Shown: positions 34,036-60,037, counted from the first letter of the stretch. The stretch: 64,000 bases of DNA from an uncultured Actinomycetes bacterium (GCA_963843705.1 CAWJLQ010000010.1:489-64488); one strand, 5' to 3'. The notes: generated from the letters alone by a model not told the origin. A program made the numbers and translations.

Positions 34036-34176
34036 AGATGGTCGACTCCGAACTCAACGCGCGCCCGGACGCACGACGGTCAGACGCCAGTTCAGCCACT
34101 ATGGCCGCTTCCTGCGTCCTTGCGCCGCTCGGTTCTCGCCCCCCAGGACATCACGTGAATTCGGAGTCGACCATCT
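34036..34176 (+). repeat. 141-nt hairpin element with perfect 17-bp terminal inverted repeats, filling the nuoD-nuoE gap
   Basis: AGATGGTCGACTCCGAA (34036-52) and TTCGGAGTCGACCATCT (34160-76). Inner pair GGACGCA (34067-73) / TGCGTCC (34113-19). Confidence 0.85.
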
Positions 34177-36039: not shown

Positions 36040-36194
36040 ACACCTTCCACGACGCCTTCATGGACGTGCGCCGGCGCATCGAGGAGGGCGAGGACCCCGA
36101 GCTGATCGTCCCGGAGCTCCTGCGCCTGGCCTCCGCCCAGGACGAGATCGACATGGCCGAGGCGCTGTACGAGGACGAGGGCGACGATGAATAA
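36036..36194 (+). CDS. 52-aa acidic protein encoded between nuoF and nuoG (unassigned)
   Basis: The GTG overlaps the nuoF TGA (GTGA). All but one sense codon (50 of 51 after the GTG start) end in G or C. Sequence VNTFHDAFMDVRRRIEEGEDPELIVPELLRLASAQDEIDMAEALYEDEGDDE. Confidence 0.6.
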   Translation: MNTFHDAFMDVRRRIEEGEDPELIVPELLRLASAQDEIDMAEALYEDEGDDE

Positions 36195-36233
36195 CCGGTG
36201 CCTGGCACCGGGTGTTCACGAGGGGGCGTGCTG

Positions 36234-38528: not shown

Positions 38529-39520
38529 CGGCTTCATCGTCACCCTGATCAAGGCGATCGTCCTGGCCAACCTCGTGATGGGCGTCTTCGCGCTGCTGAC
38601 CTGGGCCGAGCGGCGCCTGCTGGGCCGCTTCCAGGTCCGCCTGGGACCGAACCGGGTCGGCCCCTTCGGCCTGCTGCAGCCCATCGCCGACCTGGTCAAG
38701 CTGATCCGCAAGGAGAGCCTGATGCCGGTCGGCGTGAACCCGCTGCTCTACCTGACGGCGCCGCTCGTCTCGCTCTTCGCGTCGCTGGCCGTGTTCGCGG
38801 TGATCCCCTTCGGCGGCCAGGCGACGATCCCCGGCACCGACTACAAGATCTTCCTGTGGATCTCCAACCCGGGCGTCGCGCTGCTGGTCGTCTTCGCGCT
38901 CGGCTCGCTCAGCTTCTACGGGTTCCTGGTCGGCGGCTGGTCGTCGAGCTCGAAGTACAGCCTGCTCGGCTCGATGCGGGCCGTGTCGCAGCTGATCTCC
39001 TACGAGGTCAGCCTGGCCCTCGCGGTGATCGGGGTGGTCATGATGAGCCACTCGCTCTCGCTGACCCGGATCGTCGCCTCGCAGCACCAGGGCAGCAGCC
39101 TGCCCTACATCATCCCGCAGTTCCTCGGGTTCCTCGTGTACGTGGTGGCCTCGACCGCGGAGACGAGCCGCATCCCCTTCGACCTGCCCGAGGCGGAGGG
39201 CGAGCTGGTCGCCGGCTACCACACCGAGTACGGCGGCATGCGCTTCGCGATGTTCCAGAACGCCGAGTACGTGGCGCTGATCGCCTTCTCTGCCGTGGCG
39301 TCCATCCTCTTCCTCGGCGGCTACGGCTGGCCGTGGCTGCCCGGCCCGATCTGGATGGTGCTCGAGATGTCCGATCTTCATCTTCGTGGCGATGTGGCTG
39401 CGGGCGACCCTGCCGCGCGTGCGCTATGACAAGCTCATGGTGATCGGCTGGAAGGTGCTCCTGCCGCTGGCCACCGTCAACCTGCTGGTCACGTCAGTGA
39501 TCGTCGCCTGGAGGGCATAG
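38521..39520 (+). pseudogene. nuoH: nuoH, interrupted as assembled: conserved C-terminus ([31 protein letters not shown]) lies in the +1 frame from about 39374
   Basis: Frame A reads NuoH-like sequence to [11 protein letters not shown], then nonsense to TGA 39429. Frame A+1 from 39374 to TAG 39520 gives the canonical NuoH end. Confidence 0.7.
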
Positions 39521-39521
39521 T

Positions 39522-39676
39522 GGGCCTTCTCGCGATGTCAGGCCCGTTCTGGCGGCTGCAAACCATCGCGCTGAGGCGTCCTCGGACGGCGTCGTGCAAA
39601 GCACTGCCGCCGTCCGTCGTCCTTTCATCGCTCGGTTTTCGCTCGCCATCTCCAAACCACCATCACGAGAAGGTCC
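39522..39676 (+). repeat. 155-nt structured spacer between nuoH and nuoI, related to the 34036 element
   Basis: Terminal pairing GGGCCTTCTCG (39522-32) with CGAGAAGGTCC (39666-76, one G-U). Inner hairpin CGGACGGCG (39583-91) / CGCCGTCCG (39608-16). CGCTCGGTTTTCGC matches the 34126-39 segment of the nuoD-nuoE element at 13 of 14 positions. Confidence 0.65.
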
Positions 39677-39683
39677 ACTGACG

Positions 39684-40178
39684 ATGCCGGTCACCGATTC
39701 GGTCAAGGGCTTCGGCGTCACGTTCCGACACCTGTTCCGCAAGCCCGTCACCCAGCAGTACCCCGAGTACAAGCGCCCCGTCTACCCGCGCTTCCGCGGC
39801 CGCCACCGCCTGCACCGGCACGAGAACGGCCTCGAGAAGTGCGTCGGCTGCTCGCTCTGCGCCGCCGCCTGCCCGGCCGACTGCATCCGCGTCGTCGCGG
39901 CGGAGAACACCGAGCAGGAGCGCTACTCGGCGGGCGAGCGCTACGCCCGCATCTACGAGATCAACATGAGCCGCTGCATCTTCTGCGGCTACTGCGAGCT
40001 GGCCTGCCCCTTCGACGCGATCACGCTCGGCCACGACTACGAGCTGGCCGAGATGTCGCGCGACGCGATGGTCTACACGAAGGACATGCTGCTCGAGCCG
40101 ATGCACCCGAGCCGGACGACGCCGGTCGCCCCCTCCGACCCGTTCGACGTGGTGGAGCCGGCGGGAGGCGAGGCGTGA
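39684..40178 (+). CDS. nuoI: NADH-quinone oxidoreductase subunit I
   Basis: [12 protein letters not shown] and [12 protein letters not shown]. Confidence 0.93.
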
Positions 40179-40819
40179 CCTACGACATCGTCTTCGTCGT
40201 CGCGTCGGTGGTCGCGATCGTCGCGGCGCTGACCGTGGTGCTGTCCGGCAACCCGTTCATCTCGTCGCTGTCGCTGATCGCGAACCTGATCGCGCTCGCC
40301 ACCTTCTACCTGCTGCTGCAGTCCGACTTCCTGGCCGCCGCGCAGGTGATCGTGTACGCCGGGGCGGTGATGATCATGTTCCTGTTCGTCACCGCCTACC
40401 TGGGCGGCAGAGCCGACGAGCCGACCCGTGAGCGGCCGGTCTGGCAGACGCTCGGGGCGCTCGCCGCCGCCGCCGCGGTCGCGGCCGAGATCGTGTTCGG
40501 CGTCGCCCGCCAGAGCTTCCTGCACGGCCCCGTCGTGAGCGACGCCTTCGGCGCCCCGCAGGCGATCGCCGGCCGCTTCCTGGGCCGCTACCTGCTCGCG
40601 TTCGAGGGCACCTCGATCCTGCTCCTGATCGCGGCGGTCGGCGGCGTCGTCCTGGCCACCCGCCGGCCGGCGCCGCGCGGCGCGGACGAGCCGGGTGCGT
40701 TCGAGGTCGTCCGGGCCGAGCCGGTGCCGTCGCTGCAGTCGTCGGTGATGGACCGCGAGACTCGCTTCGACGTCGTGCACACGGGGGCGCCCGCCGAGGA
40801 CGAGCAGGCGGACGCCTGA
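40175..40819 (+). CDS. nuoJ: NADH-quinone oxidoreductase subunit J
   Basis: [19 protein letters not shown]; GTGA overlap with nuoI. Confidence 0.9.
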
Positions 40820-46237: not shown

Positions 46238-46274
46238 CGTTCCACTCTACGGCCGGACGCCGGAGTTGTGATGG

Positions 46275-47024
46275 TCAGGCGGGGTCGGAGACGACGATCC
46301 GAAGGCCCGTGTCCAGGTGGGCGAGGCGGCGCAGGTGGCCGTGACGGGCGTCCCACGCGCCGGACGCAAGGTCGCGGCGCAGGCGGGCGACCCCGACGGC
46401 CGCCTGCCGCCCGGGAAGCAGCCGGAAGGCCGAGATGTTGCGCCGCACCTGCGGGTCGAGGTAGGCCTCCGGCCGGGCCAGGAACGCTTCCGGGAAGCCG
46501 TCGAGGCAGTCGACCGGGACTCGCAGCGGCGTGATCTCGGTACGCCCACCAAGCCGCTCGGCGATCGCCTCCGGCCGCAGCTCGCGCCGGGCGGCGAAGG
46601 CCATGCCGGGGAAGTACTCGGCGGTCAGCCACAGCCGGTCGATCACCTGCGCGTCGCCCGCCACCACGACCACGCGCCGGGCGACTCGGCGCAGCTCGCC
46701 CAGACCGGCCGCCGGGTCGTCCCAGTGATGCACCGTGTGCAGCGCCATCGCGGCGTCGAAGCTGCCGTCGACGAACGGCAGCCGCTCGGCCGCCGCCAGC
46801 ACCGCCGGGGCGGCGTCCGCCGGCCGCTGGGCGACCATCACGGGCGACGGCTCGACCGCCAGCACGGTGCGGTCGTGCGGCTCGTACGCGCCGGCGCCGG
46901 CGCCGACGTTGAGGAGCGTGCGGCCGTCGCCCAGGGCGGCGTGGATCTGGACCGCGAGCTGGGGATCCTCGCGGCGGGTCGCGGTGTAGGTGGTCCCCAA
47001 CCGGTCGTACCACGGCATATCCAT
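46275..47024 (-). CDS. Class I SAM-dependent methyltransferase
   Basis: From MDMPWYDRLG. LLNVGAGAGAYE motif I and FDAAMALHTVHHW. Confidence 0.8.
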   Translation of the reverse strand: MDMPWYDRLGTTYTATRREDPQLAVQIHAALGDGRTLLNVGAGAGAYEPHDRTVLAVEPSPVMVAQRPADAAPAVLAAAERLPFVDGSFDAAMALHTVHHWDDPAAGLGELRRVARRVVVVAGDAQVIDRLWLTAEYFPGMAFAARRELRPEAIAERLGGRTEITPLRVPVDCLDGFPEAFLARPEAYLDPQVRRNISAFRLLPGRQAAVGVARLRRDLASGAWDARHGHLRRLAHLDTGLRIVVSDPA

Positions 47025-47026
47025 AG

Positions 47027-47050
47027 CGCGCGTACTATATAGCACGCGCG
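47027..47050. promoter_or_regulatory. 24-bp near-perfect palindrome CGCGCGTACTATATAGCACGCGCG abutting the methyltransferase ATG (possible -10 / operator)
   Basis: 11 of 12 mirrored pairs are complementary. AT-rich core TATATA/TATAGT lies 9 nt upstream of ATG 47024 on the minus strand. Confidence 0.4.
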
Positions 47051-47070
47051 TGATGGAGGCTCGGAGAGAG

Positions 47071-47259
47071 CTAGCCGGCGGGGCGGCGCCGCCAGCGGAC
47101 GAGGCCGGCCTGATGACAGGCGCCGAACACCAGCACGAAGGCGAGCGCCGCGCTGACGGCGCCTCCGACTCCCGCCGAGATCGCCCCGATCTCGACCGCG
47201 ATCGCCGCCGGGAGGGCGACGACCGCCGAACGACGCTTGCTGGGCTGCCGGGTGTGCAT
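47071..47259 (-). CDS. 62-aa membrane protein
   Basis: Strong SD AAGGAGG 6 nt upstream of ATG 47259. High GC3 and one long hydrophobic stretch. Confidence 0.55.
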   Translation of the reverse strand: MHTRQPSKRRSAVVALPAAIAVEIGAISAGVGGAVSAALAFVLVFGACHQAGLVRWRRRPAG

Positions 47260-47641
47260 GTACCGCCTCCTTCTGGGTGACGCCGGTCGCTCTCGACGAT
47301 AGGAGCCCGCCGGACGCCCGTCATCGGCGCCGCGGCGGAACCGGACCCCGTCGCGAGGAGGATCTGCGGCTCGCCCGCCCGGCGGATGCGCGGCGGGCGG
47401 TCGGGCGGTACGGTTGGAGCGATGGAGGAGTCGGTGCGGCAGGCGGTTCGCTCCGAACGTGTGCGCCGCGCTGCCGGCGCCCGATCGGCGCGATGATCGC
47501 CGTCACCGCCTCGGGCGGCCTGCTGGTCGCCGTCGCCTCTCCCCACCAGGCGCCGTTCGAGGTGTTCGTCGGCTCCGTCCTCGCCGCCTACTCGATCGGC
47601 GCGCACGTCGCCGGGCGGCGTGCCTACGTGGCGCCGGGCTG

Positions 47642-48460
47642 ATGTTCGCGGTCGGCCTGCCGTTCATGGTCGTCGCGCACAACCGGGGCATGACGACCGG
47701 GAATGCGCTCGCTCCGATCGCCTGGATCACGGGCTTTTGGGCCGTCGGCGCGATCATCCGCGGCCGGCGGGTGCGGACGGCCGAGCTGGAGCTCCTGACC
47801 CGGGAGCTGGCCCGGTCGCGCGACCTGCAGGCGCAGGCCGCGGTGGCGCTCGAGCGCGGACGCATCGCCCGCGAGCTGCACGACGTCGTCGCCCACAACG
47901 TGTCGATGATGGTCGTCCAGGCTGGCGCCGCCGACCGCGTCCTCGAGGGCGACCAGCCGGACGTGCGCCACGCGCTGCGGGCGATCTCGAACACGGGGCG
48001 CGAGACGATCGACCAGATGCGCCTGCTGCTGGGCGTCCTGCGCCGCGAGGACGACCCGGCGCTCGGCCCCCAGCCGGGGCTGCGCGACCTCCCGGCGCTC
48101 GTCCGCAACGTGTCGCGCACCGACGTCCACGTCGACCTGCACGTCGAGGGGTCGCCCGTGCCGCTGCCGCCCGGTGTCGACCTGTCCGCCTACCGGATCG
48201 TGCAGGAGGCGCTCACGAACGTCCACAAGCACGCGCGCCCCGCGACCGCCGCGGTGACGGTGCGCTACGGCGCGGACGGCGTCGAGGTCGAGGTGCGCGA
48301 CGACGGCCGGGCGCGCGTCCCCGACGGCGGCTCGGGCAACGGCCTGATCGGCATGCGCGAACGCGTCGCCATGCTCGGCGGCCAGCTCGACGCCGGCCCG
48401 GGCGCGGCGGGCGGCTTCACGGTGCGTGCGCGGCTTCCGATCTCCCGGCCGGCGACGTGA
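47642..48460 (+). CDS. Sensor histidine kinase, HisKA_3 / NarL-partner type; N-terminal TM part appears split off in another frame
   Basis: ARELHDVVAHNVS H-box, EALTNVHKHA, GNGLIGMRERV. ATG 47642 overlaps the TGA of upstream fragment 47493..47642. Confidence 0.85.
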   Translation: MFAVGLPFMVVAHNRGMTTGNALAPIAWITGFWAVGAIIRGRRVRTAELELLTRELARSRDLQAQAAVALERGRIARELHDVVAHNVSMMVVQAGAADRVLEGDQPDVRHALRAISNTGRETIDQMRLLLGVLRREDDPALGPQPGLRDLPALVRNVSRTDVHVDLHVEGSPVPLPPGVDLSAYRIVQEALTNVHKHARPATAAVTVRYGADGVEVEVRDDGRARVPDGGSGNGLIGMRERVAMLGGQLDAGPGAAGGFTVRARLPISRPAT

Positions 48461-49104
48461 TCGACCTGCTCCTCGCCGACGACCAGCCGCTCGTGCGGGC
48501 GGGCCTGCGCCTCATCCTGAGCGCCGAGCCCGACCTGCGCGTCGTCGCCGAGGCCGGCGACGGGGGCGAGGCGGTGTCCGAGGCGGAGCGCACACACCCG
48601 CACGTGGCGCTGATGGACGTCCGCATGCCCGGGCTCGACGGCATCGCCGCGACCCGCGCGATCCTGGCCGCCGTCCCGGCGGTCCGCGTGCTCGTGCTGA
48701 CCACCTTCGATCTGGACGAGTACGTCATCGAGGCGTTCCGGGCCGGAGCGTCGGGGTTCCTGCTGAAGACCGCCCCGCCGGCGCAGCTGGTGGCCGCGGT
48801 GCACACGGTGCACGAGAGCGACGCGCTGCTGGCGCCGGCGAGCACCCGCCGGCTGATCGAGGAGCACAGGCAGCGCGGCGCGGAGCCGCCCGAGCTGGCC
48901 GCGCTCACCCCGCGGGAGCGCGTCGTGCTCGAGCTGCTCGCGCAGGGCGTGACGAACGCCGAGATCGCCGACGCGCTGGTGATCGAGCCCTCGACGGTCA
49001 AGTCGCACGTGGCCCGCGTGCTCGCGAAGCTCGGCCTGCGCGACCGTGTGCAGGCGGTCGTGTTCGCCTACGACCACGGGATCGTGCGCCCGGCCCGCCG
49101 CTGA
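48457..49104 (+). CDS. Response regulator, NarL/FixJ (LuxR HTH) family
   Basis: LLADDQPLVR...ALMDVRMPGLDG and TPRERVVLELLAQGVTNAEIA; GTGA overlap with the kinase. Confidence 0.92.
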   Translation: MIDLLLADDQPLVRAGLRLILSAEPDLRVVAEAGDGGEAVSEAERTHPHVALMDVRMPGLDGIAATRAILAAVPAVRVLVLTTFDLDEYVIEAFRAGASGFLLKTAPPAQLVAAVHTVHESDALLAPASTRRLIEEHRQRGAEPPELAALTPRERVVLELLAQGVTNAEIADALVIEPSTVKSHVARVLAKLGLRDRVQAVVFAYDHGIVRPARR

Positions 49105-58405: not shown

Positions 58406-58756
58406 TCAGGCCCCGGCCCGCTGCGGCCGGGGGTGGGACGGCTCGTACAGGCCGATCTCGCCGGCGCCCGGCACCGTGATCGTGGTGACGCGGCCCCACG
58501 ACTCCACGTGCACCGGTCCGACCGTGACGCCCTTCGCGCCGAGCTCTGCCGTGGTCGCGTCGAGGTCGTCGCACATCAGGTACAGGCGGTGCGTCCCCGA
58601 TGCACCGGGATGCAGGGCGAGCTCTCCCGGCGGGAGCGCGAAGATCAGCCAGCCCTGACCGGCGTCCACCGCCGGGAAGCCCAGCACGTCGCGGAAGAAC
58701 GCGCGCGCGGCGTCGGCGTCGTCGGCGAGGAGGATGGTGTGCGCACCGGTGATCAC
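58406..58756 (-). CDS. VOC / glyoxalase-family protein
   Basis: 116 aa; AARAFFRDVLGF...LALH...GEIGLYEP. Confidence 0.8.
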   Translation of the reverse strand: MITGAHTILLADDADAARAFFRDVLGFPAVDAGQGWLIFALPPGELALHPGASGTHRLYLMCDDLDATTAELGAKGVTVGPVHVESWGRVTTITVPGAGEIGLYEPSHPRPQRAGA

Positions 58757-58760
58757 GGGC

Positions 58761-58959
58761 AGATGGTTGACCCTACGCCCCTGTGTGGTCTGTGCGGTTG
58801 CGAACCGAGCAGCGCGCGGACGCAGGGAGCGTTCATCGTGGGCGAACTATGGGCGCGACTGAGGACGCAGCGATGCGACGGTTCGCAACCGCAGCCCCAC
58901 CAACGCCCATACCGCGCCAACGGCCTGATGTCCAGACGCCCGGGTGGAATCAACCATCT
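58761..58959. repeat. 199-nt hairpin element between ychF and the VOC gene, same family as 34036-34176
   Basis: Outer IR AGATGGTTGA (58761-70) / TCAACCATCT (58950-59). Inner perfect 15-bp IR TGCGGTTGCGAACCG (58793-807) / CGGTTCGCAACCGCA (58879-93). Ends and core match the nuoD-nuoE element. Confidence 0.8.
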
Positions 58960-60037
58960 AGACGTTGAAGCGGATGTTCATGACGTCGCCGTCCTGCACG
59001 AGGTAGTCACGGCCCTCGACCCGCATCCACCCGTGCCGCTTGGCCTCGGCCTCCGAGCCGGCCTCGACCAGCTTCTGCCACTCGATCACCTCCGCCCGGA
59101 TGAACCCGCGCTCCAGGTCGGAGTGGATGCGGCCGGCCGCCTGCTGGGCGTTCTGGCCGCGGCGGATCGTCCACGCCCGCGTCTCCTTCGGGCCGGTCGT
59201 GAAGAAGGGGATCAGGTCGAGCAGCCGGTAGGCGGCCAGGGTGACGCGGTCGAGCGCCGGCCGCTCGATGCCCAGCTCCTCCAGGAACGCTGCGGCGTCC
59301 TCGTCGGGCAGCTCGCGCAGCTCGGCCTCGATCTTGGCGTTCAGCGCGATGCACTCGGTCCCGCGTTCGGCGGCGAACGCGGCCACCGCCTCGAGCTGGG
59401 CGGGATCGGGGTCGTCGCCGGTGTTGGCGACGTAGAGCGCCGGCTTGGCGGTGAGCAGGTCGACCGAGTCCGGGATCTCGACGCCGCTCGTCCGCGCCGG
59501 GCGGCCGTCCTCGAGCCACGCCGCCAGCCGCTCGAGCGCCTCGTGCTCGGCCGCCGCCGCCTTCTCGCCGCCCTTGGCCGCCTTGGCGACCCGCTCGGCC
59601 CGCCGCTCGATGGCGGCGAGGTCGGCGAACACCAGCTCGAGCTCGACCGTCTCGGCGTCCTCCTGCGGGTCGATCGCGCCCGACGGGTGGGCGACGGTCT
59701 CGTCCCCGAAGCAGCGCAGGACGTGGACGACGGCGTCGGTGTTGCGCAGGCTGCCGAGGAACTGGTTGCCGAGGCCCTCCCCCTGCGAGGCCCCGCGCAC
59801 GAGCGCAGCGATGTCGACCACCTCGAGCGTGGCCGGCACGATCTTCCCGGAGCGCGAGCTGGAGACGGCGTCGAGCGCCTCCAGCCGCGGATCGCGGACG
59901 TCGGCCACCCCGTGCACCGTCTCGACCGTCGAGAACATGTGCGGGGCGACGGTGGCGCCGCCGCCGGTGAGGGCGTTGAAGAGTGTCGAGCGGCCGCTGT
60001 TCGGCAGCCCGACCAGACCGACCTCGACGCCAGCCAT
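58958..60037 (-). CDS. ychF: Ribosome-binding ATPase YchF
   Basis: GLVGLPNSGRSTLFNALT and C-terminal YLVQDGDVMNIRFNV. Confidence 0.95.
   Translation of the reverse strand: MAGVEVGLVGLPNSGRSTLFNALTGGGATVAPHMFSTVETVHGVADVRDPRLEALDAVSSSRSGKIVPATLEVVDIAALVRGASQGEGLGNQFLGSLRNTDAVVHVLRCFGDETVAHPSGAIDPQEDAETVELELVFADLAAIERRAERVAKAAKGGEKAAAAEHEALERLAAWLEDGRPARTSGVEIPDSVDLLTAKPALYVANTGDDPDPAQLEAVAAFAAERGTECIALNAKIEAELRELPDEDAAAFLEELGIERPALDRVTLAAYRLLDLIPFFTTGPKETRAWTIRRGQNAQQAAGRIHSDLERGFIRAEVIEWQKLVEAGSEAEAKRHGWMRVEGRDYLVQDGDVMNIRFNV

Follow-up and report, generated by a model that had tools for sequence, protein, structure and literature searches.

What is a 163-nt block of structured DNA doing between two genes of one operon? 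The question is raised by the nuoH-nuoI junction of an uncultured Actinomycetes bacterium (GCA_963843705.1, CAWJLQ010000010.1:489-64488), which lies within a stretch of 64,000 nucleotides (nt), here called the window. An earlier note, made from this sequence alone, had described the junction as a structured spacer, and the spacer is real: it separates the nuoH stop codon TAG (39518-20) from the nuoI start codon ATG (39684). It is occupied by a canonical copy, e2, of a repeat family dispersed in soil Thermoleophilia. No description of the family was found in Rfam or in the searchable literature on Thermoleophilia miniature inverted-repeat transposable elements (MITEs) and on MITEs tied to translational coupling, and the family is apparently undescribed. 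In kind, it falls in a known class, the intercistronic repeats that resemble MITEs and mycobacterial interspersed repetitive units (MIRUs). The favored explanation, with a probability of about 0.6, is that e2 is a non-autonomous, MITE-like hairpin repeat that may be tolerated in the operon as a self-contained translational relay.

The membership of e2 in a repeat family is established by several comparisons. The earlier note had seen a partial homology between e2 and an element in the nuoD-nuoE junction (e1), and this homology holds. The 3' halves match at 20 of 25 positions (39618-42 and 34115-39), and the local alignment of e2 with e1 (34036-34176) scores 25, compared with 12.8 ± 2.3 for dinucleotide shuffles (0 of 1000 reach it). 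A third copy, e3, lies between ychF (58958-60037, minus strand) and a gene for a 116-aa protein (58406-58756, minus strand). All three copies contain CGTCC-N7-GCTCGGTT exactly and at an equal distance from the 3' end. The core motif CCKKCGTCC-N7-GCTCGGTTY occurs three times in the window, where none is expected; its exact match in e2 is at 39614-39638, and copies of the family have it at ~61-66 nt from the 3' end. Searched with a profile of 27 full-length copies, the window yields e2 (E 3.5e-26), e3 (3e-15), and e1 (4e-7), and nothing else. Positions 1-165 of an nhmmer profile built without e2 and its closest paralogue match 39519-39679 (E 3.3e-16). e2 is a single 161-nt unit and not part of a tandem array.

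The 25-nt core motif was also scanned across one genome per species, which returned at least 120 loci. Among the matches listed, ~80 are true copies, and the others are chance matches inside genes of unrelated bacteria. The true copies listed are nearly all in metagenome-assembled genomes (MAGs) labelled Gaiellaceae, Gaiellales, Thermoleophilaceae, Solirubrobacterales, Thermoleophilia, or Actinomycetes/Actinomycetota. The family counts given here (27, 31, and 52 copies) refer to the copies found. Two copies are found in each of six 8-kb blocks (L071, L064, L051, L012, L031, and L075), and three in the 64-kb window, which suggests a high copy density in some Thermoleophilia genomes. In a metagenome scan with a pattern specific for the apical hairpin of e2, only one of 43 matches was a real copy, on contig L127; the others fell by chance in coding sequence, which marks the e2 subfamily as low-copy.

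The copies share an interior and differ in their ends. The conserved interior consists of GGCnGCTGCAAACC-TCGC...GCGTCCTCGGTCG, a variable apical hairpin, and CTCCCTGCGTCCT-N6-GCTCGGTTTTCGC. The two core halves are asymmetric, with GCGTCCT present twice in direct orientation, and are not simple inverted copies of each other. The outer arms vary among subfamilies yet remain self-complementary (alignment A3). One main terminal type, AGTG[G/C]...[G/C]CACT, has at least 31 full-length copies and includes e2, and the other, AGATGG...CCATCT, is about 200 nt long and includes e1 and e3; further arm types are present in Thermoleophilaceae. The suggestion that e2 is an older or degenerate member fails on these grounds, since its termini are canonical for another, larger subfamily and its arms, length class, and open reading frame (ORF) are intact. 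e1, in turn, has a perfect 17-nt inverted repeat. The features of e2 and of the related sites are collected in Table 1.

Table 1. Location of e2, its parts, and related sites (window coordinates unless a contig is named).
Feature	Coordinates	Strand	Basis and remarks
e2, complete 161-nt copy of the AGTGG...CCACT subfamily, filling the nuoH-nuoI junction	39519..39679	+	Profile hidden Markov model; alignment with 26 other copies
e2 left outer arm, AGTGGGCCTTCTCGCGATG	39519..39537	+	Folding, inverted-repeat search; includes CCTTCTC (39525-31), the pairing partner of the Shine-Dalgarno-like motif in the right arm
e2 right outer arm, CATCACGAGAAGGTCCACT	39661..39679	+	Includes the Shine-Dalgarno-like GAGAAGG (39667-73), 10 nt 5' of the nuoI ATG
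e2 left conserved core block, GGCGGCTGCAAACCATCGC ... GCGTCCTCGG	39551..39585	+	(Nearly) invariant columns of alignment A3; helices 2-4
e2 apical hairpin, CGGACGGCG-tcGTGCaaaGCACtgc-CGCCGTCCG	39583..39616	+	Version specific to the e2 subfamily; common to L116, L128, and L127
e2 right conserved core block, CCGTCGTCCTTTCATCGCTCGGTTTTCGCTCGCC	39614..39647	+	Bears the family-defining motif
e2 through-ORF, 53 codons	39520..39681	+	GTG 39520 to TGA 39679-81
GGAGGG within the final nuoH codons (tgg AGG gca)	39510..39515	+	Read from sequence, role putative; 4 nt 5' of the ORF GTG
e1, 141-nt shortened copy of the AGATGG...CCATCT subfamily	34036..34176	+	Between nuoD and nuoE
e3, 199-nt copy of the AGATGG subfamily	58761..58959	-	Found by BLAST of e1; missed in the earlier note
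L124 insertion, ~200 nt, AGATGG-type	L124 3197-3410		Independent insertion
nuoF-nuoG small ORF	about 36040-36200; L001 6500-6658; L123 3526-3696

The element folds into a hairpin whose pairs covary across the family. In silico folding of the spacer gives one long imperfect hairpin of -82.7 kcal/mol; dinucleotide shuffles give -59.2 ± 4.1 kcal/mol (z -5.7), and none of 200 folds as well. The stems proposed in the earlier note are all present. The outer arms GGGCCTTCTCG (39522-32) and CGAGAAGGTCC (39666-76) form 10 Watson-Crick pairs and one G.T, the pairing continues past one C/A mismatch into GATG (39534-37) and CATC (39661-64), and the 9-bp stem of CGGACGGCG (39583-91) and CGCCGTCCG (39608-16) encloses a nested GTGC-AAA-GCAC. 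A repeat search identifies the full arms (39519-37 and 39661-79) as terminal inverted repeats of 19 nt with 89% complementarity. The note had also named compensatory base changes as a check of the stems, and these are abundant in the multiple alignment of the family. RNAalifold predicts five helices with a total of 46 consensus pairs, of which 24 show compensatory double changes, and in helix 1, to which the left outer arm of e2 belongs, 14 of 18 pairs show compensatory changes. In the consensus structure, 94.4% of cells are paired, compared with 80.6% after column shuffling and 33-41% when the partners are slid, and there are 143 double-change cells, where 42.6 are expected. In e2 itself, 40 of the 46 consensus pairs are standard (37 Watson-Crick and 3 G.U). 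A paralogue of e2 (L116 4337-4497, minus strand) has an interior ~96% identical and arms only ~55% identical to those of e2, and the arms pair perfectly in each. Judged from sequence, gene conversion of the core or exchange of the arms could account for this pattern, for which gradual compensatory change seems too slow.

Filled and empty junctions in relatives indicate that these elements are insertions at gene boundaries rather than operon-specific structures. Searching for proteins identical to NuoI and NuoK recovered only one other contig; more distant relatives were gathered through NuoI homologues. Four relatives have no element between nuoH and nuoI. In three of them, L123 (NuoI 95% identical), L125 (NuoI the same as that of L123), and L126 (NuoI 93% identical), the NuoH tail IVAWRA* is followed by 8-13 nt and the nuoI ATG. 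L123 and L126 also lack an element at the site of e1, and their nuoD and nuoE genes abut. Two soil metagenome contigs, L128 and L127 (NuoI 97% identical), share the insertion at the nuoH stop codon with the window: their e2-type copy is orthologous, 161 nt long, and 83.9% identical to e2, with no indels and an open ORF. L124, a metagenome contig whose NuoI is identical to that of L123 and L125, bears an insertion of the other subfamily, gcgTAGATGGTC...GACCATCTGAggagaccacATG, at this nuoH stop codon. Its insertion is independent, and the nuoH stop codon has thus been targeted at least twice. The distribution is best explained if the insertion of e2 at the nuoH stop codon dates from the common ancestor of the source organism and the L127/L128 lineage, or from before it. 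Several NuoI homologues in the protein database (P0061, P0108, P0044, P0047, P0051, and P0103) have N-terminal extensions of 30-95 aa or include a piece of NuoH (PF00146), and gene callers may have read through elements at the same junction.

The fourth relative without an element, L001, is a 1.03-Mb MAG contig that is 99.2% identical to window 29507-52509. In L001, 10 nt replace window 39517-39679, and within 38800-40760 the two sequences differ only at 39371, 39504, 39513, and the junction. The NuoH tail of L001 is IVRLDGA*, in place of the IVAWRA* conserved in the window and all other relatives, as a result of an extra G, a C/G change, and the 10-nt filler (L001 9970-10003, orthologous to window 39497-39686). 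The reading of L001 as a pristine empty site that proves a recent insertion was rejected because its tail and junction are aberrant and orthologous copies of e2 are present in L127 and L128. Since IVAWRA* is conserved elsewhere and L127 and L128 are filled, L001 probably reflects a secondary loss, by deletion with frame repair, or a mis-assembly.

The ends of e2 place a start codon and a stop codon against the two flanking genes. The GTG at 39520 overlaps the nuoH stop codon (TAGTG, 39518-22), and the TGA that ends the ORF sits 2 nt 5' of the nuoI ATG. The GGAGGG upstream of the GTG arises from an AGG Arg codon, for which relatives have CGC or CGA. In the proposed relay, e2 would be co-transcribed with the nuo operon, and ribosomes that end nuoH at TAG would restart at the overlapping GTG. 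They would then translate the 53-codon ORF into a peptide presumed to have no function of its own. Translation would melt the long hairpin, which would otherwise bury GAGAAGG in the 3' arm against CCTTCTC in the 5' arm, and termination at the TGA would keep nuoI translationally coupled to nuoH. For translational coupling in general, both RNA-unfolding and reinitiation models are established, as are spacing classes of -1 nt (TGATG) and -4 nt (PMC12548453). The copy between nuoD and nuoE has an ORF of 46 codons from ATG 34038 to TAG 34176-78, whose stop overlaps the nuoE GTG. In e3, the ORF is interrupted and lies in two frames.

Among the AGTGG-type copies, both frame and length are conserved, and the through-ORFs have 53-56 codons. 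The 31 full-length copies measure 161 nt (6 copies), 164 nt (22), 167 nt (1), or 165 nt (2), so 29 of 31 fall in one class modulo 3, and 164 nt is reached by at least four distinct combinations of 1-nt indels (alignment columns 24-27, 48, 85-86, and 132). The frame of the boundary GTG is free of stops in 30 of 31 copies; the other forward frames are free in 20 and 14. Because the termini are palindromic, the reverse strand likewise starts with AGTGG. For AGTGG-type copies between co-directional genes, the frame in the transcribed direction is open in 18/18, whereas that of the opposite strand is open in 11/18 (one-sided hypergeometric p about 0.004). In 14 of these 18 copies, a long upstream ORF ends at the boundary T+AG. 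A downstream start codon lies -1 to +12 nt from the stop of the mini-ORF in 16 of the 18 (CCACTGATG, CCACTGAGATG, CCACTAGTG; TGATG, TAGTG, and similar). In 13 of those 16, the 3' arm has a GGAG/GAGG/AGGA/AAGG-type motif 11-17 nt 5' of the downstream start, in arms that are otherwise unrelated. The conserved core is read in different frames among copies (PCVLxLLGFRS in some, SLRPRPARFSP in others), and its left block in all three. The openness of the frame is therefore conserved, not the peptide. Orientation of the core is biased as well: with flanking gene strands inferred from codon-position G+C, 27 of 52 copies are sense and 9 antisense between co-directional genes, 11 are between convergent genes, and 5 are between divergent genes.

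A number of observations weigh against the relay. Transcription through e2, translation of its ORF, the relay function, and the mechanism of transposition are all inferred from sequence. The conserved asymmetric core is not accounted for by a relay. The copies are related, so that the counts above are not independent, and the 164-nt class is largely one subfamily. High G+C makes open frames common, and control frames are open in 45-65% of copies. In the AGATGG subfamily, which includes e1 and e3, ORFs are often broken. The 16 of 52 copies between convergent or divergent genes are in places where a relay makes no sense. A strand-specific wobble signature is missing from the alignment, with G.U and A.C mismatches balanced at 19:18 in sense copies and 7:8 in antisense copies. 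This balance means that pairing could be kept at the level of RNA, of DNA (for transposition), or both. At the flanks, 22 of 27 copies have T on the 5' side and 16 of 27 have A on the 3' side, with no clean target-site duplication. Finally, 128 loci and the window were searched for an autonomous insertion sequence, in the form of a transposase between matching termini at a spacing of 0.6-4 kb, and none was seen, which is a weak negative.

The points on open control frames, broken ORFs, gene orientation, and mismatch balance all fit a purely selfish MITE or palindromic repeat, in which the stop and start geometry and the open frame arise incidentally. The target of insertion would be TA, or T, in stop codons, which are where TA occurs most often at ~70% G+C, and palindromic CTAG-like ends would recreate stop codons on both sides while high G+C keeps frames open. 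TA is scarce outside stop codons at such G+C content. The consensus ends CTAGTGG...CCACTAG are indeed palindromic, so both TAGs could stem from the termini or the target alone. This explanation is unlikely; it leaves unexplained why several indel combinations converge on one length class, why the boundary frame and the transcribed-direction frame are open so much more often than their controls, and why nearly all of the unrelated 3' arms have GGAG-like motifs at the distance of a ribosome-binding site. A role in RNA processing or stability is less probable still. Here the hairpin would be cut by RNase III or block exonucleases, so that the stabilities of nuoA-H and nuoI-N differ, an effect reported for REP, ERIC, and Correia repeats, and the ORF is incidental. 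The very stable hairpin, its family-wide covariation, its location inside operons with a 3:1 bias for the sense orientation, and the known effects on mRNA of repeats co-transcribed in operons (PMC3184786) are in its favor, but the wobble signature is missing and conservation of the reading frame and of the codon geometry at both ends is not predicted. Such a role is compatible with the relay and does not exclude it. A genuine small protein gene for 53 aa, for example for an accessory complex I subunit, is very improbable. The ORF fills the spacer exactly and is kept in the orthologous copy of L128, but the conserved nucleotides are read in two to three frames across the family with no conserved peptide, the ORF is near-palindromic at the DNA level, it is missing from close relatives with intact nuo operons, and the peptides of e2 and e1 have no match in Pfam. 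Least credible of all is a cis-regulatory RNA specific to nuo (a riboswitch, attenuator, or leader). A strong fold at an operon junction would suit it, but it is contradicted by the empty junctions of L123, L125, L126, and L001, and the same family is found at ~80 unrelated loci among the matches listed. Moreover, a Rfam 15 scan of e2 gave no match at E <= 10, and no intrinsic terminator (a G+C-rich stem with a T run) or promoter consensus was found in 39300-39900. Rfam scans of a canonical copy (L084), a Methylomirabilota-type copy (L113), and e3 gave only chance-level matches far below the gathering score. Likeness to attC sites, bridge RNAs, retrons, and ribozymes was discounted, as no defining motif or neighboring gene fits; the only tool used for this was Rfam.

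How the element moves is a related question, with two candidate answers. As in a MITE, there are dispersed copies together with filled and empty orthologous sites. The T/A-like flanks and the conserved termini of each subfamily suggest an insertion at TA of the IS630/Tc1 kind. The left flank of e2 is TA and its right flank is TG, with no multi-nucleotide duplication seen. The alternative is a single-strand hairpin element moved by an HUH or tyrosine enzyme, as in REP/REPIN-RAYT or IS200/IS605-like systems, and not a MITE mobilized by a DDE transposase. The conserved core would then be the recognition structure of the enzyme, which is compatible with the relay. A conserved core with variable termini is the reverse of a typical MITE, a clear target-site duplication is missing, the 5' flank is more conserved than the 3' flank, and a variant in Methylomirabilota/Rokubacteria has no outer arms. 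The alternative is nonetheless doubtful, since copies of 161-205 nt are far above the size of REPs and have no REP GTAG head, the terminal inverted repeats are well conserved within each subfamily, and TA-like flanks are consistent with an insertion of the IS630/Tc1 type. A REP measures 21-65 bp and has a GTAG head, and a REPIN pairs two units of a conserved REP in inverted orientation. Like REP, BIME, and REPIN repeats, which are associated with RAYT transposases, the family consists of intergenic, often intercistronic hairpin repeats in which pairing is maintained, but the 161-nt hairpin of e2 with its asymmetric core differs from them in size and motif. A more speculative idea, and a rather unlikely one, is that the family is a mobile "translational coupling cassette" whose conserved core is a module, of RNA or of single-strand DNA, to which a specific factor binds. 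Two direct GCGTCCT copies lie in internal loops of that core, which is conserved across Thermoleophilia and occurs without arms in Methylomirabilota/Rokubacteria MAGs. If this were true, insertion would re-tune the relative amounts of the proteins made from an operon, for example those of the membrane and peripheral arms of complex I, and near-identical interiors with unrelated self-complementary arms would be explained.

The armless core variant, GATAACCGTCGC...GCGTCCTCGG...CTCCCTGCGTCCT...GCTCGGTTCTCGG, is found in Methylomirabilota/Rokubacteria-type MAGs at L028, L091, L107, L113, L120, L003, L034, and L068, and begins immediately 3' of stop codons. In L028 and L107, the target sequence is present as direct repeats of 25-55 nt on both sides. 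In L003 (54-866), the left block of the core occurs twice, inverted and about 800 nt apart, which could be a composite arrangement; these two inverted core copies are the only arrangement that the search for autonomous elements turned up.

Known systems provide partial parallels to the relay. The closest functional analogue of the e2 family appears to be the MIRUs (Supply et al., 1997), which, as summarized in PMC3184786, are intercistronic in operons, are co-transcribed in polycistronic messages, and have small ORFs overlapping the flanking genes; that summary also describes filled and empty sites, high G+C, and internal inverted repeats. e2 is likewise intercistronic and co-directional with its genes, with an ORF that overlaps the flanking stop codon and ends by the next start codon. 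By description, the only basis of this comparison, MIRUs are 40-100 bp, often tandem, and confined to Mycobacterium, whereas copies of the e2 family are single long hairpins of 161-205 nt with terminal inverted repeats, an asymmetric core, and a Shine-Dalgarno-like motif in the arm. Since MIRUs are short and often tandem, e2 is not a member. The Correia/NEMIS, ERIC/RU-1, RU-2, RUP, and BOX repeats are similar in being non-autonomous elements of 100-200 nt with terminal inverted repeats and long hairpins, dispersed between genes and present or absent between strains, and some have ORFs fused to neighboring genes (PMC3184786; PMC2759123). Unlike these MITEs, the e2 family has variable termini and a conserved interior, lengths in one class modulo 3, ends with a start/stop coupling geometry, and no known cognate transposase. 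Rickettsia palindromic elements (Ogata et al., 2000, cited in PMC3184786) are also palindromic mobile repeats that survive in translated sequence with the frame kept open. They are in-frame inserts within protein genes that become part of a protein, whereas e2 is its own mini-cistron between genes. In the phage f1 VII/IX and MS2 coat/lysis hairpins, a downstream ribosome-binding site is buried and opened by upstream translation, and stop and start codons overlap or abut (PMC12548453). Those hairpins are fixed in particular genes; the comparable arrangement in e2 is apparently carried on a mobile repeat.

Other features of the window are separate from e2. The earlier note placed e2 directly downstream of a frameshift in nuoH, but the frameshift is ~147 nt upstream and not adjacent. 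It consists of one extra C at 39371/72, which leaves the gene divided between two frames (window atgtccgatcttc; L001 atgtcgatcttc; L128 atggcgctcttc), and comparison with relatives revealed no connection to e2. In the context of a long-read MAG, the extra C could have arisen in assembly or could be a genuine mutation that makes nuoH a pseudogene. About 2 kb of the window (47043-49101), encoding a histidine kinase and a LuxR-type response regulator, are missing from L001, and the adjacent methyltransferase-like region (46272-47043) is only 92% identical to L001. Between nuoF and nuoG, an ORF of 52-56 aa with no Pfam match is called in two relatives.

If the relay holds, a mobile element colonizes the tight, translationally coupled junctions of essential operons, here two junctions of complex I, and does so by bringing its own restart codon, open frame, ribosome-binding site, and stop codon. 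The relay architecture could have arisen as an adaptation of the element, or it could simply reflect which insertions survive. The finding would extend the 1997 observation on MIRUs to another actinobacterial class with much stronger comparative statistics, and the family would offer naturally occurring variants on which the models of coupling by unfolding and by reinitiation can be tried. The finding also points to a recurring cause of mis-annotation in Thermoleophilia MAGs, in which small ORFs are spurious, genes are fused or extended at the N-terminus, and spacers look "oversized".

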